DNA of 41,342 bases. Source: an uncultured Gammaproteobacteria bacterium. Lineage in GTDB: Bacteria > Patescibacteriota > Patescibacteriia > UBA9934 > UBA11717. Made by a program: the position numbers and the translations under genes. The stretch is taken from positions 1 through 41,342 of the forward strand of contig CAYIOW010000003.1 in the NCBI GenBank assembly GCA_964365275.1. Reading direction: 5' to 3'. Below the pieces are notes generated by a model. The model saw only the letters and a list, made by a program, of their open reading frames with translations, was not told the origin of the DNA and did no database searches. Position 1 is the stretch's first letter, and the number at the start of each line of letters is the position of its first letter. This document shows, piece after piece, positions 6,515-35,021 of the stretch.

Positions 6515-6528
6515 CTAATAAGACATGT

Positions 6529-8344: not shown

Positions 8345-8370
8345 TATTTCTATGGAAAATACAGGATAAA

Positions 8371-10084: not shown

Positions 10085-11623
10085 CTACCATTTTACTCTC
10101 GTCTCCAATATCCTCTCTCTGCTCCCCAACACCACCGTAGCGCCCGCTAGAATCCAAACATACGGAGCCAATGTGCGAATTTCCAAGAAGGTTGCGAGTA
10201 GCGCGTTTACGGCAAAAGCGACAAATACCCCAATAGCAGCCAGAGCGACAGCGCGAGTGAATGCGATTTTTGAATGTTTCGCTACGCGCCACGCAACTCC
10301 AAAAAGCGCAAGGTATAACCAAATGAAAAATATGAAACCCAATGTGCCCGCCTCTCCCCAAACGCTAAACCAATTATTGTCTATGTACCCTTCCGTGCCA
10401 TACACGCCAAAAGGCAAACCAGTCAGGTCATACGCTCTGGTGTTGTGAAGAGCCGCCGCCGCGCCGCCGCCGAATTGCCCCGGCCCCCAGCCGAATAAAA
10501 ACGAAGTAAACGAATGCGGAACAATTTTCAAAGGTGTCTGTATAATCCAAAACACGCGCCCGAGTCCGACATATTCTCCGCGAAAACGATAATATGAAAA
10601 CGCTTCCGAAAGCCGTTCAACGACCGTTTGGTCCGGAGTATCGGTAACGGTTTTTGTAATATCGGAAACCAAAAGATAGCCGATAAAAACCGCCGCCAGT
10701 ATTCCGGCTGACATAAATACCCGTTTGTCTTTTTTGAAAAACGCAATCGCCAAAACGCCAAACGCAAGCCCGAACCACGCCGAACGGCTATAGGTGAGAA
10801 TAATTGTCGGAAGCGCGAGTAGTGAAAACGCTCCAATCCACGCCGCGTATTTTCTTTCCTTGTCTTCATACGCATACGCAACCGCAATAAGAAGCGCGAG
10901 CGCCAGAAAAGTTCCTAGACGGTCGTAACGCCCCATTGTTCCAAAAACTCGCTGACCCGGGTCCCAAAACTGCACTGTTCCTTCCGTGAGCTGAATGTCG
11001 CCAAAAGTTTTCCGTTCGCTTGGAAGAAGAAGCGAATCAAAAGAACCGCCCGCGAGCGTTTGACCAATTCCCAAAACCGCTTGAAGCGCCGCCATAACAA
11101 GCATAACCGCCAACACCCTTCTTATCCAATAACGGCGCGGATAACGAAGAACAATTACGAAAAATAAAATAACGAAACGAAGAATTTGCCGAGCGCCCAA
11201 AAAAGCAGTCCCGATTGGAAGCGCGTTCAAGATGGTTGAAACGATAAGGATGCCGACAAAGAGAAGAAAAGGTAGATCGGCGGGCGTACTTCGGCGATGA
11301 TATTTCTTCGTCCAAACGCCAAAGAGAACAACGACAACGAGCAGATATACCAACATATCGGAACCGTAGCGAGCAAAAACATAAATGTCGTCCGGAATGA
11401 ATTTCAAAATAAACGGTTCAAGCGGCCACCAAAGCGCGAGAAAAGAAACCGTCCACATTGGTTCTTTATATGTTGCCCAAATCGCAGCCGCGCCAAGAAG
11501 AATTGCGATGAGAAGCCACGGCGAAACAAACACCGCGCCGATAATCGCAAACAGCCCGACCGCGATTACGATAGCGAGCGATAAATGCTCTGACGAAAGC
11601 GATGGTGGTTTTGGGAGGAACAT
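10085..11623 (-). CDS. O-antigen ligase/polymerase family membrane protein
   Basis: Many TMs; RVFGTM, LTYSRSAW and YIDNNWFSVWGEAGTLG motifs. TATAAT lies 6 nt before the ATG, suggesting a leaderless transcript. Confidence 0.88.
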   Translation of the reverse strand: MFLPKPPSLSSEHLSLAIVIAVGLFAIIGAVFVSPWLLIAILLGAAAIWATYKEPMWTVSFLALWWPLEPFILKFIPDDIYVFARYGSDMLVYLLVVVVLFGVWTKKYHRRSTPADLPFLLFVGILIVSTILNALPIGTAFLGARQILRFVILFFVIVLRYPRRYWIRRVLAVMLVMAALQAVLGIGQTLAGGSFDSLLLPSERKTFGDIQLTEGTVQFWDPGQRVFGTMGRYDRLGTFLALALLIAVAYAYEDKERKYAAWIGAFSLLALPTIILTYSRSAWFGLAFGVLAIAFFKKDKRVFMSAGILAAVFIGYLLVSDITKTVTDTPDQTVVERLSEAFSYYRFRGEYVGLGRVFWIIQTPLKIVPHSFTSFLFGWGPGQFGGGAAAALHNTRAYDLTGLPFGVYGTEGYIDNNWFSVWGEAGTLGFIFFIWLYLALFGVAWRVAKHSKIAFTRAVALAAIGVFVAFAVNALLATFLEIRTLAPYVWILAGATVVLGSRERILETRVKW

Positions 11624-14700: not shown

Positions 14701-15537
14701 GTCCGCGTCCGTGCAGTTGGGGATGGTCTCGGCGCCGTCGCCGAGTCCGTCGCAGTCATCGTCCACGCCGTTGCAGAACTCCGCCGCTCCCGGGTACACG
14801 GACGAATCCGTGTCGTTGCAATCCAGAGAGATAGGGTCGCACACGGTGAATCCGTCACCGTCCGCATCCCCGGCGTCTCCGACGCCGTCGCAGTTCTCGT
14901 CAACTCCGTCGCACGACTCCACCACACCAGGATGGATGGTCGCGTCCTGGTCGTTGCAGTCGCCTGCGCAGACCATCGCGCCATCGCCGTCCGTGTCCGC
15001 CTCGTTGGACGGCACGGTCCCGTCGCAATCGTTGTCCTGCCCGTCGCACTGCTCGGCGTTCGCGGGGAAGTTCTCCGCGTCCGTGTCATCGCAGTCGCCG
15101 TCCTCGCACTCGTTCGCTCCGTCTCCGTCGTCGTCCGTTTCCACCGAGGAGAGGACGCCGTCGCAGTTGTCGTCCACACCGTCGCAGACCTCCGCGGCAC
15201 CGGGGTGCACGGAGTGGTCGGCGTCGTCGCAGTCGCCCTGCACTTCGGAGAGCCCGTCGCCGTCGTTGTCAACGGTTTCGGGCGAGGGGGTCGTGTCGTC
15301 ATCGCCGGCAGTGTCATCGTCCGCCGTGGTGTCGTCGTCCCCGGGGATGACCGCGTCCGCGCACACTGGCGCGCGGGTGCAGTTCTGGTCCACGCAGTCG
15401 GTCATCCCGTCTGCGTCGTTGTCCCGGGAGTCGTCGCACTCGCCCGGGTTTTTTCCCTCCCAGCTGTCCTGGGTGGGGGGACAGCCCGCCGACACCATGC
15501 CGGCGAGCAGGATGGCCGTGAAGAAGTGGCGGTTCAT
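11737..15537 (-). CDS. GC-rich Asp/Cys-rich lipoprotein with many MopE-related 'putative metal-binding motif' repeats
   Basis: MNRHFFTAILLAGMVSAGC lipobox; repeats of DxDGDG...DCxDxDxxxxPGAxExCxGxDxDCDG; one TSP3-like DNCPAVANATQVD unit; SD AAGGAGGT before ATG 15537. Confidence 0.92.
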   Translation of the reverse strand: MNRHFFTAILLAGMVSAGCPPTQDSWEGKNPGECDDSRDNDADGMTDCVDQNCTRAPVCADAVIPGDDDTTADDDTAGDDDTTPSPETVDNDGDGLSEVQGDCDDADHSVHPGAAEVCDGVDDNCDGVLSSVETDDDGDGANECEDGDCDDTDAENFPANAEQCDGQDNDCDGTVPSNEADTDGDGAMVCAGDCNDQDATIHPGVVESCDGVDENCDGVGDAGDADGDGFTVCDPISLDCNDTDSSVYPGAAEFCNGVDDDCDGLGDGAETIPNCTDADGDGYFADALLGGNPDCNDADAAINPGASEIPYNGVDEDCSGTDMSDTDGDGQDALVVGGTDCNDNNIAIYLGALELCNGVNDDCYGGVPASEGDLDLDGLRNCDGDNCPAVANATQVDLDLDGLGDACDSDADGDFVSSPLDCDDQDPAIRPGAVESCDLVDSDCDGDFVDGFANNDLDAQPDCTDTDDDGDGAADSSDCASLNSSVYPGATEVCDEVDQDCDGLVADDEQDSDSDGWMPCEGDCNDNNSALRPVDADGDGITLCGGDCNDVNAAIYPAATEICNGGLDDNCDGTGENPVSCLPYFDQDGDGQTPAAGDCNDADAAIYLGAPETCNGMDDNCDLAVPGSELDMDGDRLSACEGDCDDADSARFPAAPEVCDGADNDCDGAVPVAELDQDGDGWVPCASWVGRDPTVNGGNDCADNNALMNPADADGDGYTACGGDCGGSATSSPDTNPAIHPGASEMCNGLDDDCDGTTSDEFVVCLNGLDQDGDGWSPMTGDCNDLQPEVFLGAPEGCNGVDNDCDGSVPAVELDQDGDGFVPCSPWTGSLPTVGGDCSDAFAGVHPGATDIPYNGVDEDCSGADLTDVDWDGYAGGASGADCADADPAIHPNASEACNGVDQDCDGLAPDGETDGDSDGWMPCEGDCADNNALMNPADADMDGTSSCAGDCNDANPAVRPGTPEVCDGQDTDCNPATGETVQCLSISDVDGDGFTPASGDCADGNATRYPGAPEGCNGVDNDCDGVVPASELDSDSDGMSPCQGDCADLDATRYTGASEVCDGVDSDCDGSLVDGFTDTDADGQPNCTDADDDGDLFPDVVDCGATNPAVYPNAPEACGNSVDDDCDTAVDEGCASPPPTVTVAPPTFVWSTTAVHPSLELYISVPGYVNTFPPNAVIATSATSVSTNLGTTTPGSYTAQWNVRFGPGPTDYYCVADGSGGYAVNSAVSSAVVTIGTTVFPVVSADAVPNGVGECNIQTAFTLSP

Positions 15538-15721
15538 CGCACACCTCCTTTCAAAAAGTTGAACCTGCTGGCCGGCAGTGCTCAACGGTTGAAGAACGCC
15601 ACAGAAAGTGAGGCCTCCCCCTTGTGGGGCTTTCTATGGCAACCTTGTACGGTTCATAGCCTCTTTTCGGCCTCCTTTTGGCGAAAACAAGCCACGAATT
15701 CAATCTCTCCGATAACGCCCA

Positions 15722-15750
15722 ACCTTCTCAAAAAAATTGAGTTTTGTCAA
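15722..15750 (-). promoter_or_regulatory. Promoter TTGACA-N14-TGA-GAAGGT
   Basis: Same spacing and shape as the promoters at 21125, 22925, 30514 and 31702. Confidence 0.55.
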
Positions 15751-15770
15751 ATGTTTACGATTGGCTGTGG

Positions 15771-15804
15771 ATGTGGATAAAAGGGTCAGACCCCTTTATC
15801 CACA
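15771..15804. repeat. Family B palindrome bracketed by two DnaA-box 9-mers
   Basis: ATGTGGATAAAAGGGTCAGACCCCTTTATCCACA, identical to 35725-35758. Confidence 0.9.
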
Positions 15805-15814
15805 CCCTGCCTAC

Positions 15815-15863
15815 AAAAAAACCGGCGGGCGTGGGAGGAGTAGAACCTCACCACGGCCACCGG
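15815..15863 (-). terminator. Intrinsic terminator of the second MopE-repeat gene
   Basis: CCGG..CGTGG-GAGG/CCTC-CCACG..CCGG imperfect stem followed by T7 on the minus strand. Confidence 0.7.
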
Positions 15864-15868
15864 AAGAG

Positions 15869-18175
15869 TTACGGGTCCAGGCGTTCAACCAGAAACTGGT
15901 CGTAGAGCGTGATACTCATCGGCTGTTGCCATTCGCTTGTCACGAACAGCCAGTCCCTTACACCCGTGTTTCGTGCCTCCAAATATAACTCATAGTCCAT
16001 CTGCGTCTGCACCGCTCGCCTCAAGGACGGGTATGAAGTGTCCAAGAAGGTCGCGATGAACGCCGCAGACGAGACCGTGCTCGTTGGCGTTGGCACGAAG
16101 GTCAGGAACATCGCGACATTCGGGTTCCCGGTCCAGCTCATCGTGAAGCTGAAGAGGAGGCATTGCCCGGCAGTGGTAGACCATTGCGCCCAGTTCGTGG
16201 TGAGCGCATTGGACCCGAAGGTCGCGGGCGAGTTGTCCACGAAGGTCATGGTGTGCGCCACGGTATCCACCGTGATGCTCGTATCCACCGTTGGGGTACC
16301 GAGCCACCTTCCAACCTGCGTGAAGTCGTCCACCCACAACGACACCGCCGTAGTGCTCCTGAACGCCGCACCCATATCCGAGCAACCCTGAAGACAGTAC
16401 GACCCGCTTCCCGGAAAGTTCGCCGGGTCATTGTCGTCGCAGTCCCCATACGAGTCGCAGGTGTACGGGTCGGCTTCCTGCCCGCCGCCGTCGCAGAACC
16501 CGTCTCCGTCGTCGTCCGTATTGCAGGACGAACCGCCGGACGGAATGTTTGCGACATTGGTGCAGTTGTTCACTGCGCCGTCTCCACACACCTCAACGGC
16601 GCCCGGATAGCGGTCTTCGTTCGTGTCGTCGCAGTCGCCTTCGCACAGCATCCAGCCGTCCGCATCCGCGTCCGCTTCGTTCGCGGCAGGGCTTCCCGAA
16701 CAGTCGTCGTCAAGGGCGTTGCACACCTCAACGGCACCCGGGTGAACTGCCGAATCCGTGTCGGCGCAGTCGCCCTCGCAGACCATCCAGTTGTCTGAGT
16801 CCGCATCAACTTCGGTCACCAAAGGCGAACCGGAGCAGTCGTCGTCCACGGCGTTGCAGAGTTCGGTGGCTCCTGGGTAAATGGACAAGTCCGCGTCTGC
16901 GCAGTCGCCTTCGCAGACCATCCAGCCGTCCGTGTCCGCATCCACTTCATTCGCGGCAGGGCTTCCCGAACAGTCGTCGTCAAGGGCGTTGCACACCTCA
17001 ACGGCACCCGGGTGAACTGCCGAATCCGTGTCGGCGCAGTCGCCCTCGCAGACCATCCAGTTGTCTGAGTCCGCATCAACTTCGGTCACCAAAGGCGAAC
17101 CGGAGCAGTCGTCGTCCACGGCGTTGCAGAGTTCGGTGGCTCCTGGGTAAATGGACAAGTCCGCGTCTGCGCAGTCGCCTTCGCAGACCATCCAGCCGTC
17201 CGTGTCCGCATCCACTTCATCAATGCCCGAAGCGCCTGAACAGTCATTGTCCTGTCCATCGCATGACTCTGCGTTCCCCGGGAAGTTCCAAGGGTCGGCA
17301 TCATCACACTCCGAACAGGCGAGAACTCCATCCGTGTCCGCATCAACTTCGGTCACCAAAGGCGAACCGGAGCAGTCGTCGTCAAGGGCGTTGCAGAGTT
17401 CGGTTGCGCCCGGGTAGGCCGTAGCGTTCGCGTCATTGCAGTCAACGCAAGCGAGCGAACCGTCTCCGTCCACATCCGACTCGTTTCCGAGTCCATCGCA
17501 TGCGGAATCCACTCCGTCGCAGAACTCGGGAGCCGCCGGAAAGCGACTCGCGTTTCCGTCGTCACAGTCGCCGGCGTTTTCGGAGAACCCATCTCCGTCG
17601 TCGTCCACATCCAACGGGTCAGTCGGCGTTACGGTGTCGTCGTCTCCGATTGGGGTTGTGTCGTCGTCCCCTGGCGGAGTCGTTGCGTCGTCATCGCCCG
17701 GAAGCGAAGAGTCGTCGTCCCCAGGAATGGCGCTGTCGTCGTCGCCCGGAGTCGCCGAGTCATCATCTCCCGAATCGTCGTCGCCACTGTCGTCGTCCGC
17801 CACCGTGATGTCATCGTCCCCCGAAGGAGTCGTGGCATCATCATCTCCGGAATCATCGTCCGCGACCGTAGTGTCGTCGTCATCAACGGGCGTCGTGTCG
17901 TCGTCACCACTGTCATCATCGTCTGGAATCACCGTGTCGTCGTCAGACGAGTCATCGTCATTCGGTGTTACGCTGTCATCATCTCCGGAGTCATCGTCCG
18001 GAGTGATTGCGTCATCATCGCCACTGTCGTCATCCGCCGTAGTATCGTCGTCAACGACATTAGTGTCGTCATCACCAACAATACGGTTCCACCACCCGGA
18101 GAAGCCGTACGGAATCTCCGCACAACCACAGAAGAAAACCATCAGGCCAACAAAGGCCAACCAGAACTTGTTCAT
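15869..18175 (-). CDS. GC-rich lipoprotein with poly-Asp (DDDSGDDD) linker, MopE-related repeats and a C-terminal beta-rich domain
   Basis: MNKFWLAFVGLMVFFCGC lipobox; DDD-S/T tracts; DCADxDxxxxPGAxExCNxxDDDC repeats; SD GGAGG. Confidence 0.92.
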   Translation of the reverse strand: MNKFWLAFVGLMVFFCGCAEIPYGFSGWWNRIVGDDDTNVVDDDTTADDDSGDDDAITPDDDSGDDDSVTPNDDDSSDDDTVIPDDDDSGDDDTTPVDDDDTTVADDDSGDDDATTPSGDDDITVADDDSGDDDSGDDDSATPGDDDSAIPGDDDSSLPGDDDATTPPGDDDTTPIGDDDTVTPTDPLDVDDDGDGFSENAGDCDDGNASRFPAAPEFCDGVDSACDGLGNESDVDGDGSLACVDCNDANATAYPGATELCNALDDDCSGSPLVTEVDADTDGVLACSECDDADPWNFPGNAESCDGQDNDCSGASGIDEVDADTDGWMVCEGDCADADLSIYPGATELCNAVDDDCSGSPLVTEVDADSDNWMVCEGDCADTDSAVHPGAVEVCNALDDDCSGSPAANEVDADTDGWMVCEGDCADADLSIYPGATELCNAVDDDCSGSPLVTEVDADSDNWMVCEGDCADTDSAVHPGAVEVCNALDDDCSGSPAANEADADADGWMLCEGDCDDTNEDRYPGAVEVCGDGAVNNCTNVANIPSGGSSCNTDDDGDGFCDGGGQEADPYTCDSYGDCDDNDPANFPGSGSYCLQGCSDMGAAFRSTTAVSLWVDDFTQVGRWLGTPTVDTSITVDTVAHTMTFVDNSPATFGSNALTTNWAQWSTTAGQCLLFSFTMSWTGNPNVAMFLTFVPTPTSTVSSAAFIATFLDTSYPSLRRAVQTQMDYELYLEARNTGVRDWLFVTSEWQQPMSITLYDQFLVERLDP
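16680..17220. repeat. 270-bp tandem duplication (two identical 90-aa units)
   Basis: 16681-16950 is repeated at 16951-17220. Confidence 0.9.
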
Positions 18176-18224
18176 CGCGTCCTCCGAGGGGCTCTGCCCC
18201 GTATTCTGTTATGTGTTGAGTTCA

Positions 18225-18254
18225 GTAACTTTTTCGTACCTACGAAAAAGTTAC
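18225..18254. promoter_or_regulatory. 30-bp palindrome of family C in the leader of the 768-aa gene
   Basis: GTAACTTTTTCGTA-CC-TACGAAAAAGTTAC, with perfect 14-bp arms. Confidence 0.75.
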
Positions 18255-18574
18255 ACAGTGTTAGGTCGCCTTAAGTTTCGGCGGACACCACGTCTCGCCT
18301 AGCGCTTACGCGACCAATCTTGTTTGAGTTGTAATGAACTTTACAGACGCGAAAGCCGCGCTGAAGACAGTCCCCTTCGTCTTCAATTCGCCTTTCACAA
18401 TGACAATACCTTTTTTCTGTTATTTTGCAATACCATATAACTAATAATAAAATTTTCTCAAACGATTGGGCCTAGAGTTATTACACCATTTATGCGCGTA
18501 AACAATTTGTAATTAGTGCATTGCGAGCCACAAGATATTTAAGTAATTTTACAGAACAAAGACACAATGACAAA

Positions 18575-18619
18575 AATATAACTGACCACTTTTTTCGTAG
18601 GTACGGAAAAAGTGGTCAA
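18575..18619. repeat. 45-bp direct repeat, left copy (family C palindrome)
   Basis: 44/45 identical to 19399-19443; contains the stop codon of the PaaX-like gene. Confidence 0.92.
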
Positions 18620-19194
18620 AACGGTTTTGCTGAAAAAACCGAAATTAATGCTCCGAGTTTATTTTTTATTATCCATTTATTGAACAGAATGCCAACATCG
18701 GTTTTTGTATACCATACACTTTGTTGTAATCGCAAAAATCCGCTTCCCTTTAATAGGTGTCTTATTTTGTCTCTGAGATGATTGTTCACGGTTGGTATGT
18801 CAAAAACCACCACGCATATCATGCCATTGGGTAATAGTGTTTTCGTAGCACGAATCCGCTCCCGCAGAGCTCTTAATCTTCCTTCGTCTGTAAGCGCGAT
18901 CCGCAGTTGATTTCCATTTTTCTCTATTCTAATCAGGCGTTTTCTCTTCAAATAACTAATCGTACGAATATGCTCAAAATATAAATCCCAATATTGACCA
19001 TCCTCCGTATACGGACGCAGTAAGGATTTCCGTGGGCTATAAAACGGCAAACCGTCTCTTCGTTCTTCTACCATCTCAACAATCTCTAATAACACCTGAC
19101 CAACCTTTGTTTTTGGTTTTCTTATATTCCTCCAAGCAAACATATGTGCGCGCGTCAGTTCCCTCCTCGTGAGCCGTATCTTTGTTGTTGACAT
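18616..19194 (-). CDS. PaaX-family protein (wHTH plus Cas2-like domain), CPR type
   Basis: YLKRKRLI...LTDEGR wHTH end; VVVFDIP...RDKIRHLLKGSGFLRLQQSVW Cas2-like motif; lower GC than its neighbours. Confidence 0.88.
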   Translation of the reverse strand: MSTTKIRLTRRELTRAHMFAWRNIRKPKTKVGQVLLEIVEMVEERRDGLPFYSPRKSLLRPYTEDGQYWDLYFEHIRTISYLKRKRLIRIEKNGNQLRIALTDEGRLRALRERIRATKTLLPNGMICVVVFDIPTVNNHLRDKIRHLLKGSGFLRLQQSVWYTKTDVGILFNKWIIKNKLGALISVFSAKPF

Positions 19195-19267
19195 AACAAA
19201 AACAAAATCGCGAATAAGAACGATTTTGTCCGGTGGGGACGGGACGAAAATTGTAATAAGCATTGTA

Positions 19268-19299
19268 ACACTTTTTTCTCACCTACGAAAAAAGTGGTC
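19268..19299. promoter_or_regulatory. Family C palindrome overlapping the promoter region of the PaaX-like gene
   Basis: CACTTTTTTCTCACCTACGAAAAAAGTG lies between TTGACA (19300-19305, minus) and TGT-TACAAT (19262-19270, minus). Confidence 0.65.
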
Positions 19300-19398
19300 T
19301 GTCAAGAGTATGGTGGGGATAAGTGAAGAGTAAGGTAGAGAAAAGTTTTTTGCATGAGTGATAAGACGCAGCGATGAGACGCGAAGAGCAATGCCAAT

Positions 19399-19443
19399 AA
19401 TATAACTGACCACTTTTTCCGTAGGTACGGAAAAAGTGGTCAA
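19399..19443. repeat. 45-bp direct repeat, right copy (family C palindrome)
   Basis: AATATAACTGACCACTTTTTCCGTAGGTACGGAAAAAGTGGTCAA. Confidence 0.92.
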
Positions 19444-19578
19444 CTTTAAAGTAATCAACTTTGAAGAATATTCAAGTGGTTTTTGTAGAGTGTGAAATGC
19501 GTTATCTAATTTGAAGAATATTCAAGTGGTTTTTGTGAAATATGAAAGTAGAGTGAAAAGTGTGAGATGCGTTGTCTG

Positions 19579-19623
19579 AAAACGAACGAGACCCCCACGC
19601 ATAGACGATGCGTGGGGGTCTCG
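19579..19623 (-). terminator. Probable terminator of the 396-aa gene
   Basis: Perfect 16-bp stem CGAGACCCCCACGCAT/ATGCGTGGGGGTCTCG followed by TTCGTTTT on the minus strand. Confidence 0.7.
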
Positions 19624-19751
19624 AAGAAAGTGTGGGCCTGTGGCCGCGGAGCGGAGAAGTCCCGAAGGACTCCCCCGCTCGCGACCGGTTGTTCTTGTCG
19701 TTGTGCCACCCGGGCGACGAACCCGAGTGGCGGAATCGTGGGGGGAGACGA

Positions 19752-20942
19752 CTACTGGCGCTTGCACCAGAAGTCGTTGTTCCCGACGGCTCCCCACCGG
19801 CATGTGCCGGGGGAGACATCGGGCCACGAACTCGTTGCCGAGCTCGTGGAGCGGGAACGGGTGAGCGGGTAGCTCACCCCGCCGACGGTGAGCGAACTCA
19901 CCCTGTCGGCGGTCCCGGTCACGAGGAATCCCCCCGCGACCGTGCCGTTGACGCTGAACCTGTCCCCCGACGACAGGGGGACCGACCCGCAGGAAAGGGT
20001 CGTCCCCCCGGTACCGCTTGCGCAGTACTCGGGGGATGACAACCCCCACCAGGACCCGGACCACTGCGTCCAGTTGAAGACCCGGAGGTCCCAACTGCCA
20101 GATGACGAGGAATCTCTCGTCACCTGGACGGTGTTCCCGGTGGGGGGGCTGCACCCCTCATCCACGGTCCCGTCGCAGTCGTCGTCCACGCTGTTGCAGG
20201 TCTCGGTTGCCCCCGGGTAGACGGCGCTGTTGCCGTCGTTGCAGTCGGCGGAGTCCGGCGAACCGTCTCCGTCGCTGTCCACCGCGGGGGCGGTGGTGTC
20301 GTCATCGTCGTCCGCGGGGGTCGTGTCATCGTCGTCCGCCGTTGCGTCGTCGTCATCCCCTTCGCCGGGGAGGACTCCGTCGCAGTCGTTGTCCACTCCG
20401 TCGCCCCAGATGTCGGGGGCGCCGGGGTGAACCGACGGGTTCGTCTCGTCGCAGTCCCCGGCGTAGCCGGGGGACGAACCGTCCCAGCAGACGAGACGGC
20501 AGTAGCCGTCCCCGTCGTGGTCCACCCGGCCGTCGCAGGCCGGGGACCACTCGCAGTCGGAGTCGGCGCAGTCGTAGTCGCCGTCTCCGTCGTTGTCCGC
20601 CTCGTCCGAGCAGCCGAACTGCTGCTCGTTCTCGTCGTCCACCGGGGGGGCGGTGGTGTCGTCGTCATCGTCCGCGGGGGTCGTGTCGTCATCCGCGGTG
20701 TCATCGTCGGTCGTGTCGTCGTCGGCGGGGTTGCACCCGCCGAACCCGGCGCAGTCCGGGTCGTCGCAGTCGAACCAGCCGTCGCCGTCGTTGTCGGCGG
20801 CATCCGCGCAGTTCTCGCCGACGACGACATCGTCGGGAGGGCCCTGGTCGCACGATGCGACCAGGAGAAAACAAACTGCCGTGAACCACACAGCGAGGCC
20901 ACCCCGGAGGGCGGAGGTGAGAAGGGGGCGGGGATCGCCCAT
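19752..20942 (-). CDS. GC-rich lipoprotein with poly-Asp linkers and MopE-related repeats
   Basis: CFLLVASC lipobox; CADAADNDGDGWFDCDDPDC and DCNDGNSAVYPGATETCNSVDDDCDG repeats; SD-like GGAG. Confidence 0.9.
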   Translation of the reverse strand: MGDPRPLLTSALRGGLAVWFTAVCFLLVASCDQGPPDDVVVGENCADAADNDGDGWFDCDDPDCAGFGGCNPADDDTTDDDTADDDTTPADDDDDTTAPPVDDENEQQFGCSDEADNDGDGDYDCADSDCEWSPACDGRVDHDGDGYCRLVCWDGSSPGYAGDCDETNPSVHPGAPDIWGDGVDNDCDGVLPGEGDDDDATADDDDTTPADDDDDTTAPAVDSDGDGSPDSADCNDGNSAVYPGATETCNSVDDDCDGTVDEGCSPPTGNTVQVTRDSSSSGSWDLRVFNWTQWSGSWWGLSSPEYCASGTGGTTLSCGSVPLSSGDRFSVNGTVAGGFLVTGTADRVSSLTVGGVSYPLTRSRSTSSATSSWPDVSPGTCRWGAVGNNDFWCKRQ

Positions 20943-21022
20943 TTTTCGTCTCCACCGGCAATACCCTGCCGGAGCGGGACCTTGGCGGAAATGCCTCGGA
21001 AATCTGTTTTCTTCTACTTATT

Positions 21023-21062
21023 GTCATACCCCTCCTATCCTCCCCTGTTTAGGGGAGGGAAA
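21023..21062. repeat. REP-like family A copy inside the leader of the 396-aa gene
   Basis: GTCATACCCCTCCTATCCTCCCCTGTTTAGGGGAGGGAAA. Confidence 0.9.
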
Positions 21063-21124
21063 CATAGAAAAAAGCATATTTCCGGGCACTTCGCCGAGGT
21101 TTTGCACCTTGTAAAGGACTTACG

Positions 21125-21153
21125 AACTTATCAGAAAAATGAAAAAGTGTCAA
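21125..21153 (-). promoter_or_regulatory. Promoter TTGACA-N14-TGA-TAAGTT
   Basis: The -35 and the extended -10 (TGATAAGTTCG) are identical to those at 22925-22953. Confidence 0.75.
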
Positions 21154-21183
21154 GCGGCGAATGGCTTAATATCGCCTTTGCTC

Positions 21184-21251
21184 GTCATTGCGAACGCAGT
21201 GAAGCAATCTCAGAGACAATTAAGAGATTGCCGCGCTTCGCTCGCAATGAC
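21184..21251. repeat. RPE-like palindromic element (GTCATTGCGA...GCAATCTC / GAGATTGC...TCGCAATGAC)
   Basis: Nested inverted repeats matching the widespread GTCATTGCGAG-type palindromic element. Confidence 0.8.
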
Positions 21252-21292
21252 AAGCAAAAATGACTAAAACTATGGATATAACGGTAGGAATC

Positions 21293-21332
21293 GTCATACC
21301 CCACCTAACCTCCCCTATATAGGGGAGGAAAA
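21293..21332. repeat. REP-like family A copy
   Basis: GTCATACCCCACCTAACCTCCCCTATATAGGGGAGGAAAA. Confidence 0.9.
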
Positions 21333-21346
21333 TAGTGAAGTGAATT

Positions 21347-21390
21347 AAAAAAAGGAAGAGCGCGGCCCGGGAGAAACCCAGACCGCGCTC
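21347..21390 (-). terminator. Intrinsic terminator of the collagen-like gene
   Basis: GAGCGCGG/CCGCGCTC stem followed by TTCCTTTTTTT on the minus strand. Confidence 0.7.
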
Positions 21391-21450
21391 ATTGCTGAAC
21401 CTCACCTCTCCGAAGTCCCACAGTGCGTGGGGTGGAGAGGTGGGGAAAAC

Positions 21451-22680
21451 CTACCACTTCGCGGCGACGAGTACGCCGACCACCGGGTCGGCGTAGGGCG
21501 CGATCGCCAGCCCGCCGAAGGGACGGCGACCGGAGGCCTTCACGCCCACCGTCCCCGCAAGGAGAAAGTGGTCGTAGTCAACCACGACCACCAGCTCCCC
21601 TGTACCGCCGAGACCTGGGTACTTGCCCCAAGTCGCGACGCGCGGGGAGAAGTAGTCGTAGACATCCCCTCCGAACCCCACACGGGGTCCGAAGGAGAGC
21701 CACGGCGCCTTCCCCAAAAACGGGGGGTGGAAGAGGACAGCTCCGTTGACGGAGAACTGCCCTCCGACTGAGGCCTCCTCATCGCTGTCTCGCCCGAAGT
21801 TCAACCCCGCTTGGAGGTTGAACATCAGGCGGACACGGTCGCCTTTCGTGAGGAGACCGGCGGCGAGCTCAACGCTCACCGTTACCGGCTTCTCCACGAA
21901 GGTGAGGTGGTGGCTCCGGGACTTGTAGGTCCCGGAGTAGGAACCGAGGTTCCCACCAACCACACCCCCGACGAAAACGAAGGGCCTTGCCTCCAGGGCG
22001 ACCAGACGGCTTGCACCGTCAAAGTCGTCGCCCTTGTCCCCCTTGTCGCCCTTCTCTCCCGCCTGACCCTGCGGCCCGGCGGCGCCGTCCTTCCCGTCCT
22101 TGCCCACCGGACCCTGCGGTCCGGCGGAGCCCGCAACACCGTTTGCTCCGGCGGGACCACGCGAACCCCGCCTCCCGTCCGCTCCCGCCTCACTCTTCGG
22201 CGGATTCAACACCGCCGAATTCTCGGCGATGCAAATCACCGGCGGGGTGTTTCGGGCGAACAACTCATCGTGGTCTCCCACAAATGTGTTGCCCGGATCA
22301 CAGATACCCCTCCCCTGCTCGCTCTCCCACACCAGGCGATTGTCCACCTGGGTGAAGCCCCCATCCGCCTGAATCACCCAGAGGCGGGGAAGAGTTACCA
22401 GCCAGTGAGCAGCCCGCTGATTTGTCCAGAGTACCCAGCTATCCCTGGCGGACAGCTCCGGGCACTCGTCGTACCGGACCTGTCCGGTCGGCGTAGTGCC
22501 AACCTTGTCGTGTCCGATGCTCTGGAGCGCGGTAAAACGCTCCAGAATGCAGTTCTCTGGCGTGCCATTCACAAGCCACGCCGAAATCTCGGTCTGCACC
22601 GGCTGTTGTGCCGACGCGTTCGTTGCCATGATGAGCCCCATGGCGAGGGTGGCCGCGATGGCCAGGATGTGGTGGCGCAT
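21451..22680 (-). CDS. GC-rich secreted protein with a Gly-X-Y collagen-like tract and a C-terminal putative 8-stranded beta-barrel
   Basis: Signal peptide ending ASA|QQ; GADGRRGSRGPAG...GDKGDKGDD tract; amphipathic Gly/aromatic strands ending VVGVLVAAKW; SD GGAGG. Confidence 0.85.
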   Translation of the reverse strand: MRHHILAIAATLAMGLIMATNASAQQPVQTEISAWLVNGTPENCILERFTALQSIGHDKVGTTPTGQVRYDECPELSARDSWVLWTNQRAAHWLVTLPRLWVIQADGGFTQVDNRLVWESEQGRGICDPGNTFVGDHDELFARNTPPVICIAENSAVLNPPKSEAGADGRRGSRGPAGANGVAGSAGPQGPVGKDGKDGAAGPQGQAGEKGDKGDKGDDFDGASRLVALEARPFVFVGGVVGGNLGSYSGTYKSRSHHLTFVEKPVTVSVELAAGLLTKGDRVRLMFNLQAGLNFGRDSDEEASVGGQFSVNGAVLFHPPFLGKAPWLSFGPRVGFGGDVYDYFSPRVATWGKYPGLGGTGELVVVVDYDHFLLAGTVGVKASGRRPFGGLAIAPYADPVVGVLVAAKW

Positions 22681-22924
22681 TTCTGCGTCCTCCAGTTCCC
22701 CGCCGGAGGCGGGGCGACGCTTTTTTCAGCGTCCTTTTGAATTCCCGGCCGGATAGAACGGCCATTGTTTCGCGCGCCGGCACAATACCGGCGCAACGAG
22801 ATTGTACAGAGCAGAGGCCTTTCGGCTATGCCCTTCCAAGGCACGATTGCCAATGAACACAAGGAGGGTGTGTTCCGGCTATCGCGCCATGCAAGGGCAC
22901 AATTTCAGACCTTTCCGACCCGCG

Positions 22925-22953
22925 AACTTATCAAATTTTGTGAAAAATGTCAA
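22925..22953 (-). promoter_or_regulatory. Promoter TTGACA-N14-TGA-TAAGTT
   Basis: Matches 21125-21153. Confidence 0.75.
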
Positions 22954-23129
22954 CAATGGAGAGAATAACTTGCGTATATTCAGTTTATTCCATCCTTCCA
23001 ACAAAAAACTCCTATGTAGGCAGAGCTTGCGACGAGGAGGAGGCGTCGTAAACTACTGCCAACACAGGAGTCGGCAAAATCTTATCAGGCGGGATTTGGG
23101 GAGTCAAGAAGAGTAGGATTAGAAATTAT

Positions 23130-23222
23130 CGTACCCTACCTCACCTCCCCTGCGAGGGGAGGGAAACCAGGTAACTTAAGAAATTTAATTTCCTCCCCTG
23201 TAAGGGGAGGCTAGGTGGGGTA
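23130..23222. repeat. Inverted doublet of family A (REPIN-like)
   Basis: CGTACCCTACCTCACCTCCCCTGCGAGGGGAGGGAA...TTCCTCCCCTGTAAGGGGAGGCTAGGTGGGGTA. Confidence 0.88.
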
Positions 23223-23242
23223 AAGCGTTTAACAAATAATTA

Positions 23243-23887
23243 TTATGCGTGCAAAAAGCGGTGGCGTTCCGCTTCAATGTGTGAGCGAAGGAGTACGAAC
23301 GCGCCGCCCGCCAAAGCGCCAATCACTAAACCGACAAAAGCATTCGCCGGAATGTTCGGGCGAACCGGATAACGCGACACCAGCGGGTTGTCAACCAAGC
23401 GAACTGAAATGTTTCCGCCGGAAGTGTAGCGCCAACCCTGTTGAGTCAGCACAAACGCAATCGCTTCAGAAATCAGTTTTGCCTGTTCCGGACTATGGTT
23501 GTAAACACTCACGGACAAAAGCCCGGTGCCGCGCGCAACGCTTGTGCCTATCATTTTATTCCAAATCTTTCTTCGCTTCGCCGGCTTCGCGTCCGCGGAC
23601 GGAAATTGCGCTTCGTTCACCCCGAAACGGGATTGAAGCACCTGGTCAAAAAAAGTGGTGGTGTAAACAATTTGCGCCAAATCATCCGCAACCCGTTCCG
23701 CGCTACGACTCGCCGAATATGCGTCGGACGATATGGATTCCTGCGTAATCAGCAGACGGATGGACGAGCTGTATTCAAGGGGTCTGATAAAACTCAAAGC
23801 AACGCCAAGTAAAAGTCCGCACACGGCAAAAACACCAACCATGCCGACATGTCGGACCAATAACGCCATTGCTCTTTGAGAGGTCAT
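23243..23887 (-). CDS. Wzz/CpsC-like polysaccharide chain-length determinant
   Basis: Two terminal TMs; PLEYSSSIRLLI and PVRPNIPANAFVGLVIG motifs. Confidence 0.85.
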   Translation of the reverse strand: MTSQRAMALLVRHVGMVGVFAVCGLLLGVALSFIRPLEYSSSIRLLITQESISSDAYSASRSAERVADDLAQIVYTTTFFDQVLQSRFGVNEAQFPSADAKPAKRRKIWNKMIGTSVARGTGLLSVSVYNHSPEQAKLISEAIAFVLTQQGWRYTSGGNISVRLVDNPLVSRYPVRPNIPANAFVGLVIGALAGGAFVLLRSHIEAERHRFLHA

Positions 23888-24001
23888 TGGGAAGTATTGT
23901 GAAGTATGAAGTATTTGGTATTCCGCCAGAGGCGGACAACGGTTGGTATTTTGGGAGTGCTTACAGATGACGACAACTACCACCCTTACACAAAATACAT
24001 C

Positions 24002-25036
24002 TCACAGTGTAACAGAAATTGTTTCTTCAGTGTATGTTTGTGTTGATATGTTGAAACGACGAACCGTAAAAATAAGTTCGTCTCCAGCTTTTGCTCTCGC
24101 AACAAATTCCGCAAGCGACCTTATGAGCGCGGGCTCATTTCCAATTCGCAAAATCACATCGCCGACATTTATCCCCGCTTTCGCCGCCGGCAAACCTGCC
24201 GACACGCCGCGCACAATAAGGCCGTCGGACACGCCTTCATTCGCCGTTTCAACGCGAATCGTATTGGTCGCCCTGATTCCGAGTTCCGGCCGCCGCGCGC
24301 TCCCTTCTTTGAATACGCCCCCGAGAGCGGAAGTAAATTGCTCTATCGGCCGCGCGACATCTTCATCGGCCATCACCCCAATCAATGAACCGTCGGCGGA
24401 AAGCACCGCCGCTCCAAGCCCGTCTTCAATCGGCAAATCAAGCTTCCAAAGCCGTTCAAAATCGTCAGAACTTTCAAACGGCTTTTCGTTCTTACGAAAA
24501 TCCGCGACCGCAATTCGCCTGGCGAACATTCCATCCGCGGTTTGAACGAAAATTCGTTCGCCAATCTCCAAATCGGCATTGCCGAACGAAACGACTTTCA
24601 ATTCGTCGGCGTCAAATTTCGCGAAAACAAATTCCGTTTCCGCATCCGAAACCGTTTTTAAGAGCGGAGATGATGTTACGGGACGAGGTATCAAATGAAT
24701 GCGCGAACCGAAACGCAAAAAGACATCTTTCGCGACGAGAGTCCAACCGTCGGAGGTAAGCGCAACCGCCATGCCGACTTGCTTTGACTTCGCCTGGTCG
24801 TTCACGCTATCCGACATAATCGGCAGAACGAGTCCTTCGGCGCGTTCTCTTAAAAAAGAAATCGCGTCAGTGTCAGCGTCAATGCCCTTTGTCTTCACTC
24901 TTCTGACATCTTCAATCAAACCTCCGACATCCGGAATTTTGTTTTGAATAACTTGCGCCGCAATGAAGCCCGCGAGAACAACCGACAGCACCCATAAAAC
25001 GATACCGACGATGATAAAAAAAGTTTTGCGTGTCAT
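24002..25036 (-). CDS. HtrA/S1C-like membrane protein with PDZ domain, degenerate catalytic motifs
   Basis: GMAVALTSDGW trypsin-like motif; PAAKAGINVGDVILRI PDZ motif; ATGA overlap with the upstream gene at 25033-25036. Confidence 0.82.
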   Translation of the reverse strand: MTRKTFFIIVGIVLWVLSVVLAGFIAAQVIQNKIPDVGGLIEDVRRVKTKGIDADTDAISFLRERAEGLVLPIMSDSVNDQAKSKQVGMAVALTSDGWTLVAKDVFLRFGSRIHLIPRPVTSSPLLKTVSDAETEFVFAKFDADELKVVSFGNADLEIGERIFVQTADGMFARRIAVADFRKNEKPFESSDDFERLWKLDLPIEDGLGAAVLSADGSLIGVMADEDVARPIEQFTSALGGVFKEGSARRPELGIRATNTIRVETANEGVSDGLIVRGVSAGLPAAKAGINVGDVILRIGNEPALIRSLAEFVARAKAGDELIFTVRRFNISTQTYTEETISVTL

Positions 25037-25803
25037 ATCCATCTCGCGGTTATAAGAAGAATGAACATTGCCGCCGCGCCAAAAGCCAAATAACGGACAA
25101 GGACCGGCTTTGAAAGTTTTTGAAGAAGAACCGAGCGCCAAAGCCCAAGCAGTAAATACATCCACACCGCGAGCAAGGCGCCGAGAACCGTATACGCCGC
25201 CGGAAGCCAGGCATGCGCCACAAAAAGAGCGGCCAGTGCCCAACCGCCGATCAGAGAAAGCCGCAGCGCCTCGCTGTCTCTAACCTTCCCCATCCAAAGC
25301 GCGGAATATGCCAAAAATGCGGCCGAGACACCTTCAATAATTCCAAGCGCCCAAAGCGGAATGGCATCGCGAACGAAAGTTCGCAATCCGAATAAACTCG
25401 CCGATACAAAATAGAACGCCGAGATTTGCATAACGAGTCCGGTGTATTCCAAAGCGTATGGGCGATAAAGCGACGGCCGCTCAATAAAACGAAAGAGATG
25501 TTCCAGAAACAACGCCGAAAACACCGCAATATACAGAGACAGGGCGTAAGACAGAAGCGGTGTCTCAATAAAGGTTATAAAAAAACTGCCGCCGGCCGCA
25601 AAAAACGAAACCGTGAAAGCGATATGCCGCCATTCGTTAAGCCGCTTGCCCCAGCCGGCGATTATGCCAACGCCGATGAACATAACAACCGCTTCGGCTA
25701 TAACAACCCATGGAGTGAGCCGCGGACGCGTCAAAATAACCCAAATCTCAACCGGAACGGTCGCGCCGATTATATATGGAAGTATTCGCCTGAAGAAAAA
25801 CAT
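25033..25803 (-). CDS. Polytopic membrane protein of unknown function
   Basis: Many hydrophobic segments; translationally coupled to the downstream gene. Confidence 0.8.
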   Translation of the reverse strand: MFFFRRILPYIIGATVPVEIWVILTRPRLTPWVVIAEAVVMFIGVGIIAGWGKRLNEWRHIAFTVSFFAAGGSFFITFIETPLLSYALSLYIAVFSALFLEHLFRFIERPSLYRPYALEYTGLVMQISAFYFVSASLFGLRTFVRDAIPLWALGIIEGVSAAFLAYSALWMGKVRDSEALRLSLIGGWALAALFVAHAWLPAAYTVLGALLAVWMYLLLGLWRSVLLQKLSKPVLVRYLAFGAAAMFILLITARWI

Positions 25804-27945: not shown

Positions 27946-28494
27946 GGGGACGATCGGCTTCGACGTGAAGTAAGTGATCTGTCTGCGCGAGCCGGGGGCG
28001 CACAAAACCCCGTACATCCTTTGTGCAAGAAATAACTGCCAATTTCATTTCAAAGCTCAAGGACGCTTTCCGCGTTCCAGCTTTCGCCCTCGCCTAAGCG
28101 CGACGGCGCGTTCCACCGTCTGACGCCTTCTGGGGCGGATGGGGCGTTATAAAGAAGGCCGACATCCCTTCAGCATTCGCAGTGCGGGGACTGCCGATTG
28201 GCTCTGCGAGTCATCGTCAATTCGTTTTGACCGCTTTAAAGAATTGATGATGTTAGGAACCTCTCCGAAAGTCGCTTCCGTCCTGAAAGCGAATATTTTT
28301 CCAGGCTGCTTCGTCAGTATTCCTCAATGATATAACCATATCATTTCCGGAATCCTTCCTCGCATCCTGAAAAAATCTTTCGCTTTCATACTGGAACGGA
28401 CCTTCAGAGAGGTTCCTAAATAAAAACGGCTACGCTCGTACACGCTTCAGACATTGCATTACGGACCCGGGTTCAATTCCCGGCGTCTCCACCA
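27946..28494 (+). ncRNA. ssrA: tmRNA (549 nt); tag peptide ANFISKLKDAFRVPAFALA at 28038-28097
   Basis: GGGGACG/CGTCTCC-ACCA acceptor stem with G3-U; T-arm CCGGG-TTCAATT-CCCGG; ATAACT-GCC resume context; tag ends FALA; adjacent to smpB. Confidence 0.95.
28256..28416. mobile_element. 161-bp MITE-like hairpin inserted inside ssrA
   Basis: Ends GGAACCTCTC/GAGAGGTTCC, TA on both sides, internal TGAAAGCGAA/TTCGCTTTCA pairing. Confidence 0.7.
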
Positions 28495-31701: not shown

Positions 31702-31730
31702 TTGACAAATAGACAATTTTTTGATAAAAA
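31702..31730 (+). promoter_or_regulatory. Promoter TTGACA-N14-TGA-TAAAAA
   Basis: Same layout as the promoters of the other GC-rich genes. Confidence 0.65.
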
Positions 31731-31816
31731 TCCCAGTCCTGCACATTTGCAGGCAAGTTCCCCGGCAACACCGGAAAGCCCCGCATTCCGCGGGCAAAAA
31801 GCGCCTTTGGCGCAGT

Positions 31817-31873
31817 ATTCCGCCTCTGGCGGAAACATTCCGCCTCTGGCGGAAACATTCCGCCTCTGGCGGA
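31817..31873. repeat. Three tandem 20-bp units containing palindrome TCCGCCTCTGGCGGA (family D)
   Basis: Palindromes at 31819, 31839 and 31859, directly before the SD. Confidence 0.9.
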
Positions 31874-31887
31874 GAAAGGAGGCGGCA

Positions 31888-34379: not shown

Positions 34380-34636
34380 GTCATACCCCTCCTAACCTCC
34401 CCTACATAGGGGAGGAAGTTAAAGTACATAACTCGCTGGTATTTTCTTCTCCCATATGTAGAGGAAGAAATTAAGGAACATGACTCACTAATGTTCTCTC
34501 CTCCCCTACATAGGGGAGGAAGTTAAAGTACATAACTCGCTGGTATTTTCTTCTCCCATATTTAGGGGAGGAAATTAAGGAACATGACTCACTAATGTTC
34601 TCTCCTCCCCTACATAGGGGAGGTCGGGTAGGGTAT
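34380..34636. repeat. BIME-like array of five family A palindromes with a 104-bp tandem duplication
   Basis: CCTCCCCTACATAGGGGAGG at 34396, 34500 and 34604, with degenerate copies between; linkers alternate A-B-A-B. Confidence 0.92.
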
Positions 34637-34646
34637 AGTTTCGCAT

Positions 34647-35021
34647 ATGCGTTCCCCATATAATCCCCATTTTCAAAAATCTCGTCGTCAGCATCTACGA
34701 AACGAGTCAACCTCGGCCGAGCAAATACTGTGGAAACATATTTCTCACAAGCAATTGGAAGGAAAAAAGTTTCGGCGACAATATGGAATCGATAACTTTA
34801 TTGTTGATTTCTATTCTACTGAACTTCGTCTTGCGATTGAAATAGACGGAGATTCACATTTTGAAAGCGAAGAAGCAGAAAAGAACGACAAAGAAAGAGA
34901 AGAATATATTTCCAAATCTCACAACATCAAGTTTTTACGATTCACAAACGCAGATGTTATGCATAATATATCCGGAGTAGTTGGTACGATTCTTGATTAT
35001 ATTAAGTCATACCCCTCCTAA
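34647..35021 (+). CDS. DUF559 (Vsr-like PD-(D/E)xK) endonuclease domain protein
   Basis: LRNESTSAEQILW, KFRRQYGIDNFIVDFY, LAIEIDGDSH and LRFTN motifs. Confidence 0.95.
   Translation: MRSPYNPHFQKSRRQHLRNESTSAEQILWKHISHKQLEGKKFRRQYGIDNFIVDFYSTELRLAIEIDGDSHFESEEAEKNDKEREEYISKSHNIKFLRFTNADVMHNISGVVGTILDYIKSYPS

Follow-up and report, generated by a model that had tools for sequence, protein, structure and literature searches.

A collagen-stalked exported protein with a putative barrel-type tail in a surface-glycan locus of a patescibacterium

The P0001 gene and its product

The stretch of DNA studied here, called the window, is a whole contig of 41,342 nucleotides (CAYIOW010000003.1 of assembly GCA_964365275.1, contig C3 in our numbering) from the genome G000. 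On its minus strand, at 21451-22680, lies an open reading frame (ORF) for a protein of 409 aa, which we call P0001. The gene sits among exported genes between a Wzy/O-antigen-ligase-like and a Wzz-like gene of a glycan locus. Other G-numbers refer to comparison genomes, of which G046 belongs to the same family as G000, G360 to the same order, and the others to the same class or phylum.

A preliminary description of this ORF had listed a signal peptide, a Cys-containing domain, a Gly-X-Y tract and about eight amphipathic strands with a terminal Trp. The ORF and its length are found as described, all eight strand strings are present in the translation, and the C-terminal Trp (..VVGVLVAAKW), the Cys-containing domain (four Cys) and the Gly-X-Y tract (18 triplets) are confirmed. 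The domain layout, including the collagen tract, is supported directly and reads as follows in the direction of transcription.

22688..22693, minus strand: Shine-Dalgarno sequence GGAGGA, 7 nt 5' of the ATG, read from the sequence
22609..22680, minus strand: residues 1-24, putative type I signal peptide, cleaved between MRHHILAIAATLAMGLIMATNASA and QQ (..ATNASA/QQ), recognised by reading the translation
22186..22608, minus strand: residues 25-165, orphan globular head of ~140 aa with Cys 44, 73, 127 and 150
22024..22185, minus strand: residues 166-219, collagen-like stalk of 18 unbroken Gly-X-Y triplets, found by a regular expression and by Pfam PF01391
21454..22023, minus strand: residues 220-409, short linker (DGASRLVALEAR) and C-terminal β domain ending in AAKW
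21358..21390, minus strand: terminator-like hairpin of 14 pairs (11 G-C) followed by a T-run, 60 nt past the stop

The GC contents at the first, second and third codon positions (GC1, GC2 and GC3) are 0.68, 0.50 and 0.79. Because of this codon-position pattern, the GGAGGA before the ATG, and the hairpin and T-run after the stop, the reading frame is taken to be real. The stalk meets the Pfam Collagen profile (PF01391) at E 5.9e-9, with 36 bits against a cut-off of 27.2. No Cys occurs beyond residue 150, so that the tail proper (residues 225-409, ~185 aa; Gly 15.7%, Val 14.1%, Leu 10%) has none. An LPXTG motif is absent from the translation, a LysM match is absent from the Pfam scan, and there is no SLH domain, the head having no Pfam match of any kind at E ≤ 10.

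A contig of 1874 letters assembled from a run of a second study is identical to the window over 21411-23284, with 0 differences. It carries the gene and its 5' flank, bridging the P0001 gene to the Wzz-like gene. No variant occurs inside the P0001 gene in four sequencing runs.

Outside its collagen tract, P0001 is an orphan in the databases searched. Of 7,998 candidates scored with the whole protein, 160 reached E ≤ 0.001, and these are relatives of the collagen tract only. All 120 of the database relatives listed align to the Gly-X-Y tract and carry PF01391; three collagen relatives (P0037, P0042 and P0049) resemble phage-fibre collagen proteins by eye. PHROGs gave matches to 29 families, and the alignments of the 25 shown do not reach outside residues 130-242, a segment around the collagen tract. 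The three NCBIfam matches, to Scl and Lcl models, are confined to the same residues and reach 36 bits, far below the cut-offs of 325-500, those for the Scl1/Scl2 type being 325 and 400. Tail fibres and Scl/Lcl adhesins make up most of the PHROGs families shown and of the NCBIfam matches.

Of 59 candidates, the head recovered no protein but itself; it matches nothing in PHROGs, NCBIfam or PDB sequences, and has structural neighbours in the ESM Atlas with TM scores of 0.35 at most. When the tail was searched against 1.84 billion representative proteins, it returned itself and a repetitive protein of 2380 aa (E 1.6e-5), which was judged spurious as a homologue. It has no PHROGs or NCBIfam match either. 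Neither head nor tail has a paralogue in G000 by tblastn. In 400 other genomes of the phylum, the sole match of the tail (E 0.003) is an antisense frame of a macroglobulin-like gene and was rejected. Five diderm genomes of 5-10 Mb contain no homologue of the tail, the best match being at E 0.05.

Counterparts in relatives and the fold of the tail

Relatives were compared through the gene next to P0001, which served as an anchor of synteny.

23243..23983, minus strand: Wzz/GNVR-like gene, chain-length-determinant-like, directly upstream of the P0001 gene

It scores 26.1 bits with Pfam GNVR and 19.5 bits with Pfam Wzz, both below the cut-offs, and is present in 74 of 151 genomes of the class. 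The gene directly downstream of it in a class relative was defined as the counterpart of P0001. Counterparts have the same build as P0001, with a signal peptide, a Cys or LysM head, a stalk, and a β tail that usually ends in Phe or Trp.

G046: 466 aa, Cys head and Ala-rich helical stalk, ends ..TAGIRF
G360: 484 aa, build as in G046, ends ..ALIVYRF and a Pro-rich end
G095: 582 aa, coiled coil, ends ..LRFGIRF
G138: 461 aa, build as in G095, ends ..PILDRF
G018: 209 aa, stalk absent, ends ..LSYLF
G454: 510 aa, long coiled coil, ends ..EIILFF
G539: 392 aa, Cys-bearing N-terminal part with no stalk noted, ends ..FNLTF
G208 (L145:412-1197): 261 aa, 12 Gly-X-Y triplets and then a β tail of 145 residues, ends ..SLSVKF
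G416 (L149:1916-3346): 476 aa, 5 Gly-X-Y triplets and an OmpA_membrane match, β tail and then an acidic end

The G208 counterpart reaches 27.6 bits with Pfam Collagen against the cut-off of 27.2, and it matches P0001 only in the collagen tract.

The G416 counterpart matches Pfam OmpA_membrane (PF01389) with 22.5 bits against a cut-off of 21 (E 1e-4), in a closed, one-contig genome of 1.2 Mb that has no Omp85 match. Another type, represented by G481, is ~610 aa long, consists of LysM and a part of ~300 aa, and occurs in six of the seven genomes of its order. Its LysM scores 20.6 bits in Pfam, just below the cut-off of 20.9, and a database relative is annotated as LysM; LysM is also found in the G419 counterpart. 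When the last 291 residues of the G481 type were modelled with AlphaFold2 from an eight-sequence alignment, the predicted local distance difference test (pLDDT) was 79.8 and the predicted TM score (pTM) was 0.74. The model has ~14-16 long antiparallel strands. Foldseek against the PDB gave 197 matches at E ≤ 0.001 for this model, and all the matches listed are outer-membrane barrels: OmpG (TM 0.52/0.55), the porins OmpT, OmpU and OmpF, FadL, PorB, Veillonella OmpM1 and autotransporter β domains. Going by the Pfam match in G416 and the G481-type model, this locus does encode outer-membrane-type barrels in Patescibacteria genomes without Omp85. A hidden Markov model of the G481-type barrel matches no ORF of G000 at E ≤ 10.

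How common such tails are was gauged with a crude filter, which takes same-strand ORFs of at least 140 aa with a signal-like start, Phe, Trp or Tyr as the last residue, and hydrophobic odd positions. Stretches downstream of the Wzz-like gene were taken from 64 of the 74 genomes; 63 were counted, a 57-base stretch being dropped, and several end at contig ends. The filter passes 15 of these 63, compared with 11 of 602 ORFs of G000. It misses G440 and G528, which were recognised by eye. The G000 ORFs that pass and were checked include SpoIID, DUF4012 and Wzy-like proteins and two that have no family; being unassigned or not barrels, they were discarded as barrel candidates. Pfam applied to 20 barrel-candidate counterparts gave sub-threshold OMP_b-brl or Porin_4 matches in three (G095, G528 and G481). 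The G046 tail has a single match in 150 other class genomes, at E 0.0025. An alignment of seven tails by MAFFT was found untrustworthy and set aside, and hhalign comparison of single counterpart tails with PF13505 (16 sequences) gave nothing above shuffles.

As to the tail of P0001, the period-2 hydrophobic moment over residues 225-409 gives z = 2.15, which is reached by 36 of 2000 shuffles. For comparison, z is 2.35 ± 0.75 in 16 genuine PF13505 barrel domains, -0.14 ± 1.26 in 19 pieces of native window proteins (1 of 19 at 2.15 or above), and -2.0 in the head of P0001. Because the periodicity matches the PF13505 mean and is above chance, the tail is read as a β-rich amphipathic domain. By periodicity alone, membrane barrels and soluble sandwiches cannot be distinguished. 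By eye, ~8 strands of 10-14 residues are discerned, with short turns (TKGDR, DYDH) alternating with longer loops. Most strands have one hydrophobic face, while the other consists of Gly, Ser, Asn and Gln and bears few charged residues. This pattern of strands, turns and loops would be that of an OmpX/OmpA-type barrel. The protein also has a β-signal-like end, since W, A, V, V and V occupy positions 1, 3, 5, 7 and 9 when counted from the C-terminus.

In the ESM Atlas, residues ~226-409 align to ten cluster representatives with TM scores by query of 0.63-0.78. Eight of the ten clusters are named outer membrane protein or contain OMP_b-brl, OmpA_membrane, OMP_b-brl_2 or HP_OMP families, and the feature search gave 0.89 to a cluster 'Outer membrane protein beta-barrel'. 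Because of these neighbours, the strand pattern and the synteny, the P0001 tail is at present best read as an outer-membrane-type barrel, which we treat as a lead.

A number of results weigh against this reading. The tail has no Pfam match at E ≤ 10 and no notable sequence match in the PDB; neither PF13505 nor PF01389 matches P0001 in Pfam at E ≤ 10 or in the genome search at E ≤ 1. The hhalign probability of the tail with 16 PF13505 domains is 0.9%, and the global score of 10.65 compares with 4.0 ± 2.4 for shuffles, whose maximum is 11.6. With the G481-type barrel alignment, hhalign gives no signal. AlphaFold2 without an alignment models residues 219-409 at a pLDDT of 32.4 only. Confidence in the ESM Atlas model is low (pLDDT 0.47 over the whole protein, pTM 0.38), and the feature score of 0.89 is below the 0.9 mark. 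Several strands are hydrophobic on both faces, with Val at 14% and Leu at 10% of the domain, a share above that in typical outer-membrane proteins (OMPs). In the relatives, the crude filter fails in 48 of the 63 stretches, and among the 20 barrel-candidate counterparts one is above an OMP cut-off and 16 are without a match. The P0001 tail is not similar in sequence to any counterpart, the best being G046 at E 0.09, so that the orthology of P0001 and its counterparts is deduced from position and build alone. Finally, as described below, G000 has no Omp85 or POTRA match, and there is no membrane known to house such a barrel. A three-copy complex prediction of the tail scored 0.00 where the mark is 0.32; it gave no answer and is no evidence either way.

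Envelope genes, synteny and origin

G000 comprises 827,691 bases in 59 contigs with a GC content of 0.486, and is 98.64% complete with 0.19% contamination. Its assignment in the preliminary description to the Candidate Phyla Radiation (CPR) agrees with the label 'Patescibacteria group bacterium' that a protein of G481, a genome of the same class, bears at its source. The same description held that CPR bacteria generally lack lipopolysaccharide (LPS) and BamA, of the β-barrel assembly machinery (BAM). This holds in the 98.6%-complete G000, where family searches gave no match to Omp85, POTRA, LptD, LpxC, OMP_b-brl or OmpA_membrane; in the expected diderm genomes, the controls for these searches matched. 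OmpH/Skp matches were discarded, being sub-threshold and coiled-coil-like, with the same signal in monoderm and archaeal controls. Two contigs of the bin, C52 and C53, of 3 kb each, have a GC content of 0.61-0.67 in 1-kb windows and look mis-binned; a 4Fe-4S/molybdopterin-oxidoreductase-like ORF and IS21-like ORFs were recognised on them by eye.

Omp85 is above the cut-off in none of 301 sampled phylum genomes (one match is sub-threshold) and in one of the 151 class genomes, namely G530, where it lies at a contig start (C25:156-1046, E 8.6e-11). OMP_b-brl is above the cut-off in one of the 301, G169, a bin of 1.7 Mb in 120 contigs (C48:6142-6798, E 3.4e-13). Either match may be contamination or a true exception. 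Genome sizes in the phylum are 0.7-1.7 Mb. CPR, or Patescibacteria, are treated as single-membrane bacteria in which porins and tethers were lost, according to the available text of PMC8871954, PMC13278184 and bioRxiv 10.1101/2021.05.31.446380.

The block that contains the P0001 gene has further members and neighbours.

10085..11623, minus strand: Wzy/O-antigen-ligase-like gene at the far border of the block (Pfam Wzy_C 20.8 bits, below the cut-off)
11737-15585, 15869-18175 and 19752-20942, minus strand: three high-GC3 genes for exported MopE-repeat (PF11617) proteins
24002..25243, minus strand: gene for a PDZ-domain protein (Pfam PDZ_6), a conserved neighbour
21296..21341, no strand assigned: palindrome resembling a repetitive extragenic palindromic (REP) element (ATACCCC.CCTAACCTCCCCT-N-AGGGGAGG), repeat family D16
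1954-1999, 6478-6523, 8265-8353, 21026-21071, 21296-21341, ~23130-23215, 34383-34655 and 35009-35054: copies of the REP-like palindrome

By blastp, the Wzy-like, MopE-repeat, Wzz-like and PDZ proteins and further window proteins are matched in G046 and G360. The order of the window is kept on one contig in G360, and the block is split over two contigs in G046. The Wzy-like protein is 61% identical in G046 and 48% in G360, and the PDZ gene is syntenic in G046, G360 and G095. The synteny is observed directly.

P0001 has a GC3 of 0.79 compared with ~0.50 in neighbouring housekeeping genes, and from this difference we first thought of a foreign high-GC island, an idea that was dropped once synteny with relatives was found. 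GC3 is 0.71-0.88 in the MopE-repeat genes of the window, 0.91-0.94 in those that occupy this position in G046 and G360, and 0.91-0.98 in the exported genes of the block in these two genomes; a high GC3 also marks the syntenic exported genes in G095, G138, G208 and G454. Over the block 11737-22680 and its relatives, exported genes have a GC3 of 0.7-0.98 and the flanks ~0.5 or less. A recombination hot spot with GC-biased gene conversion is one possible cause, and the repeated replacement of cassettes is another. MopE-repeat relatives come mostly from metagenome-assembled genomes (MAGs) of Myxococcota and Proteobacteria, and also from Peribacteria, Uhrbacteria and DPANN MAGs.

At least nine copies of the REP-like palindrome (CCTCCCCT-N4-AGGGGAGG, with a conserved 5' arm) stand beside native and high-GC genes alike, and at 34396-34655 the palindrome forms a 52-nt tandem array. 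Contig depth over 21227-21383 is 871 in run X6 and more than 1000 in the other three runs, and so some repeat in that interval is highly abundant in these samples. An Rfam scan found nothing near the P0001 gene, and there are no phage genes near it.

The preliminary description had also offered that P0001 might be a captured relic. This is not supported, since its high GC3 is common to the whole exported block, which is syntenic in genomes of the same family, the same order and several of the same class. Because of the synteny, the host REP elements on both sides and the identical contig of the second study, we regard the gene as inherited and correctly assembled. It is intact, and forms this genome's version of an envelope gene that recurs among the relatives.

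Several other features were noted. Inside the GC-rich block, an ORF of 215 aa resembling Cas2/PaaX_M (18616-19263) has a GC3 of 0.38; its region, 18581-19442, is bracketed by near-perfect palindromic repeats of 34-36 nt (I2 and I5) and looks inserted. An orphan ORF of 860 aa at 31702-34284 has a GC3 of 0.79, no Pfam family, and an internal repeat of 300 nt at a distance of 543 nt. A match to transfer-messenger RNA (tmRNA) at 27946-28494 spans 549 nt for a model of 374 positions, which suggests a large insertion. In G192, a class relative, the same GC-rich block encodes an exported protein of 411 aa (L143:7297-8532) that contains 44 Cys; Pfam Disintegrin matches it with 29.2 bits, below the cut-off of 35.1.

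A proposed stalked envelope tether and its alternatives

We favour, by a modest measure, the reading that P0001 is an inherited, Sec-exported, stalked, barrel-type envelope tether, a collagen variant of an OmpM-like module. Its globular four-Cys domain would serve as the head, the 18 triplets would form the stalk as a trimeric collagen triple helix, and the ~180 residues of the tail would be the anchor. The anchor is most likely a small, probably eight-stranded β-barrel of the OmpA/OmpX class with a terminal aromatic strand. The collagen tract would gather three chains, and each barrel would be embedded in a lipid layer or a lattice, folding without BAM. The stalk would fix the distance between anchor and head. 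Its length would be ~15 nm, a figure that rests on the rise of 0.286 nm per residue. As a fast-evolving module beside the Wzz-like gene in a surface-polysaccharide locus, the gene would have P0001 as its collagen-stalked local version.

Where the barrel would reside can be conceived in more than one way. For a pore-less, eight-stranded barrel, the cell's own cytoplasmic membrane, entered from outside, is topologically possible, and for the larger barrels of counterparts this placement is unlikely. An outer layer of the cell that has escaped recognition is conceivable, and so is the outer membrane of a host. A wider proposal, to which we give a minor chance, is that the whole class keeps working Omp85-independent barrels, in such an outer layer or in a host outer membrane, with the stalk fixing the envelope gap.

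Among known systems, the OmpM/SlpA tethers consist of an SLH domain, a triple coiled coil and a 16-stranded barrel, according to the available text of PMC10628300. Like Veillonella OmpM1 (PDB 8BYS), P0001 has the order of signal peptide, N-terminal head, rod-like stalk and putative C-terminal barrel. However, the OmpM head binds the wall through SLH, which P0001 lacks; the OmpM stalk is a trimeric coiled coil, whereas P0001 has a collagen tract in its place; and the OmpM barrel has 16 strands, whereas the ~180 aa of the P0001 tail have room for ~8 at most. The hosts differ as well, because OmpM belongs to diderm Terrabacteria, while the P0001 host is without Omp85 in a phylum without a known outer membrane. 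The accessible part of bioRxiv 10.1101/2021.05.31.446380 states that the clade of Chloroflexi, CPR and Dormibacteraeota has lost both its porins and its SLH domains.

The N-terminal domain of OmpA (PF01389) and the OMP_b-brl family (PF13505) resemble the P0001 tail in size, strand number and length, alternation of turns and loops, periodicity and terminal aromatic residue. The barrel is N-terminal in OmpA, however, whereas the barrel-like tail of P0001 follows a head and a stalk, in a genome without BAM. We file P0001 in neither OmpM nor PF13505/PF01389, because the SLH, coiled-coil and 16-strand features are absent and no profile matches.

In Scl1/Scl2, Legionella Lcl and Bacillus BclA, as in P0001, a signal peptide, a variable head and a Gly-X-Y stalk are followed by a C-terminal anchoring part. 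The Scl type ends in a wall-sorting LPXTG tail, whereas P0001 has a β-rich tail without LPXTG and, as noted above, falls far short of the Scl/Lcl models. Trimeric autotransporter adhesins also have a head, a trimeric stalk and a C-terminal β anchor, if P0001 is indeed a trimer. In those adhesins, each chain gives four strands to one 12-stranded, BamA-dependent barrel. P0001 differs in its ~8 strands per chain, its collagen stalk, the lack of BamA in its genome and the lack of an autotransporter family match. Bucl8 of Burkholderia has a collagen-like tract fused to tandem outer-membrane efflux domains (available text of PMC7682875), and so, like P0001, it would combine such a tract and an outer-membrane-type component in one chain. 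It belongs to a diderm with BAM, and P0001 is unlike it in organism, in barrel type and in how its parts are ordered.

The tail could instead be a soluble β-sandwich or jelly roll that caps the collagen trimer or binds a ligand, as in BclA, C1q-type heads and phage fibre tips, so that P0001 would be a collagen fibre without a membrane part, either secreted or associated with the wall. Collagen-like proteins of bacteria and phages usually have a globular trimerisation or binding domain by the triple helix, the PHROGs families shown and the NCBIfam matches of P0001, confined to the collagen region, are for the most part tail fibres and Scl/Lcl adhesins, alternating hydrophobicity suits a sandwich as well as a barrel, and no OMP family matches the tail. 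However, its ESM Atlas neighbours are outer-membrane barrels rather than sandwiches, and the genes at the same position in relatives are read as OMP-type barrels by Pfam or AlphaFold2. Strands of 10-14 residues, the Gly content, the absence of Cys and the charge-poor polar face of Gly, Ser, Asn and Gln speak for a barrel too, and phage genes are lacking nearby. We consider a sandwich unlikely, if well worth keeping in mind. The barrel might also act on another cell: with the head on the symbiont, a self-inserting barrel on its 15-nm stalk would enter the outer membrane of a diderm host, much as the preliminary description proposed that the product would need one. Small barrels such as OmpA and OmpX types fold into bilayers without BAM in vitro, and the two termini of a barrel lie on the insertion side, so that the topology fits. 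Searches found no BAM, LPS or OMP genes in G000 and hardly any in the class, the fast divergence of head and tail suits a host-interaction protein, and an episymbiotic life is common among CPR bacteria, Gordonia being one of their hosts (available text of PMC13278184). The LysM heads of counterparts, however, point to a wall but not to whose wall. We know of no case in which a barrel inserts spontaneously into an LPS leaflet from outside, and this scenario seems to us rather doubtful.

That the gene is a functionless relic, recently captured from a high-GC diderm donor, would account for its GC3 in contrast to the housekeeping genes around it, for the orphan status of both head and tail, and for the mostly myxococcal and proteobacterial relatives of the neighbouring MopE-repeat genes. 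On the other hand, the frame is intact with its Shine-Dalgarno site, signal peptide and terminator, and the same high GC3 is found in the syntenic exported genes of G046, G360, G095, G138, G208 and G454. Host REP elements flank both sides, no homologue of the tail was found in the five large diderm genomes or among the 1.84 billion representatives, and some MAGs of Peribacteria, Uhrbacteria and DPANN have MopE repeats too. A relic is thus improbable. Even less credence is due to an artefact, whether an assembly chimera or a frame that is open by chance in DNA rich in GC. Such DNA does yield long ORFs in several frames at this locus, GC content jumps at gene borders, and mis-binning seems to have affected contigs C52 and C53, but the codon-position GC pattern, the in-frame Pfam Collagen match and the signal peptide argue for a true gene. 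The contig of the second study covers it with no difference, native repeats flank it, and the synteny with relatives holds.

No description of such head-stalk-barrel proteins in CPR was found in the open-access literature, and the collagen stalk is a new feature for a stalked, putatively barrel-type protein in Patescibacteria. The collagen version would be a short, rigid, sequence-simple stalk of defined length, and coiled coil and collagen would be interchangeable as stalks at this locus. If the wider proposal of Omp85-independent barrels is true, these proteins would be either surviving relatives of an ancestral OmpM-type tether after the loss of the outer membrane, or new, self-inserting attachment anchors. 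A conserved, exported head-stalk-barrel protein in genomes without BamA would make it directly testable whether CPR cells, or the zone in which they touch a host, have a second lipid layer, and the collagen version would lend itself to such tests. It would also bear on BAM-independent barrel folding and on how bacteria with two membranes gave rise to those with one.

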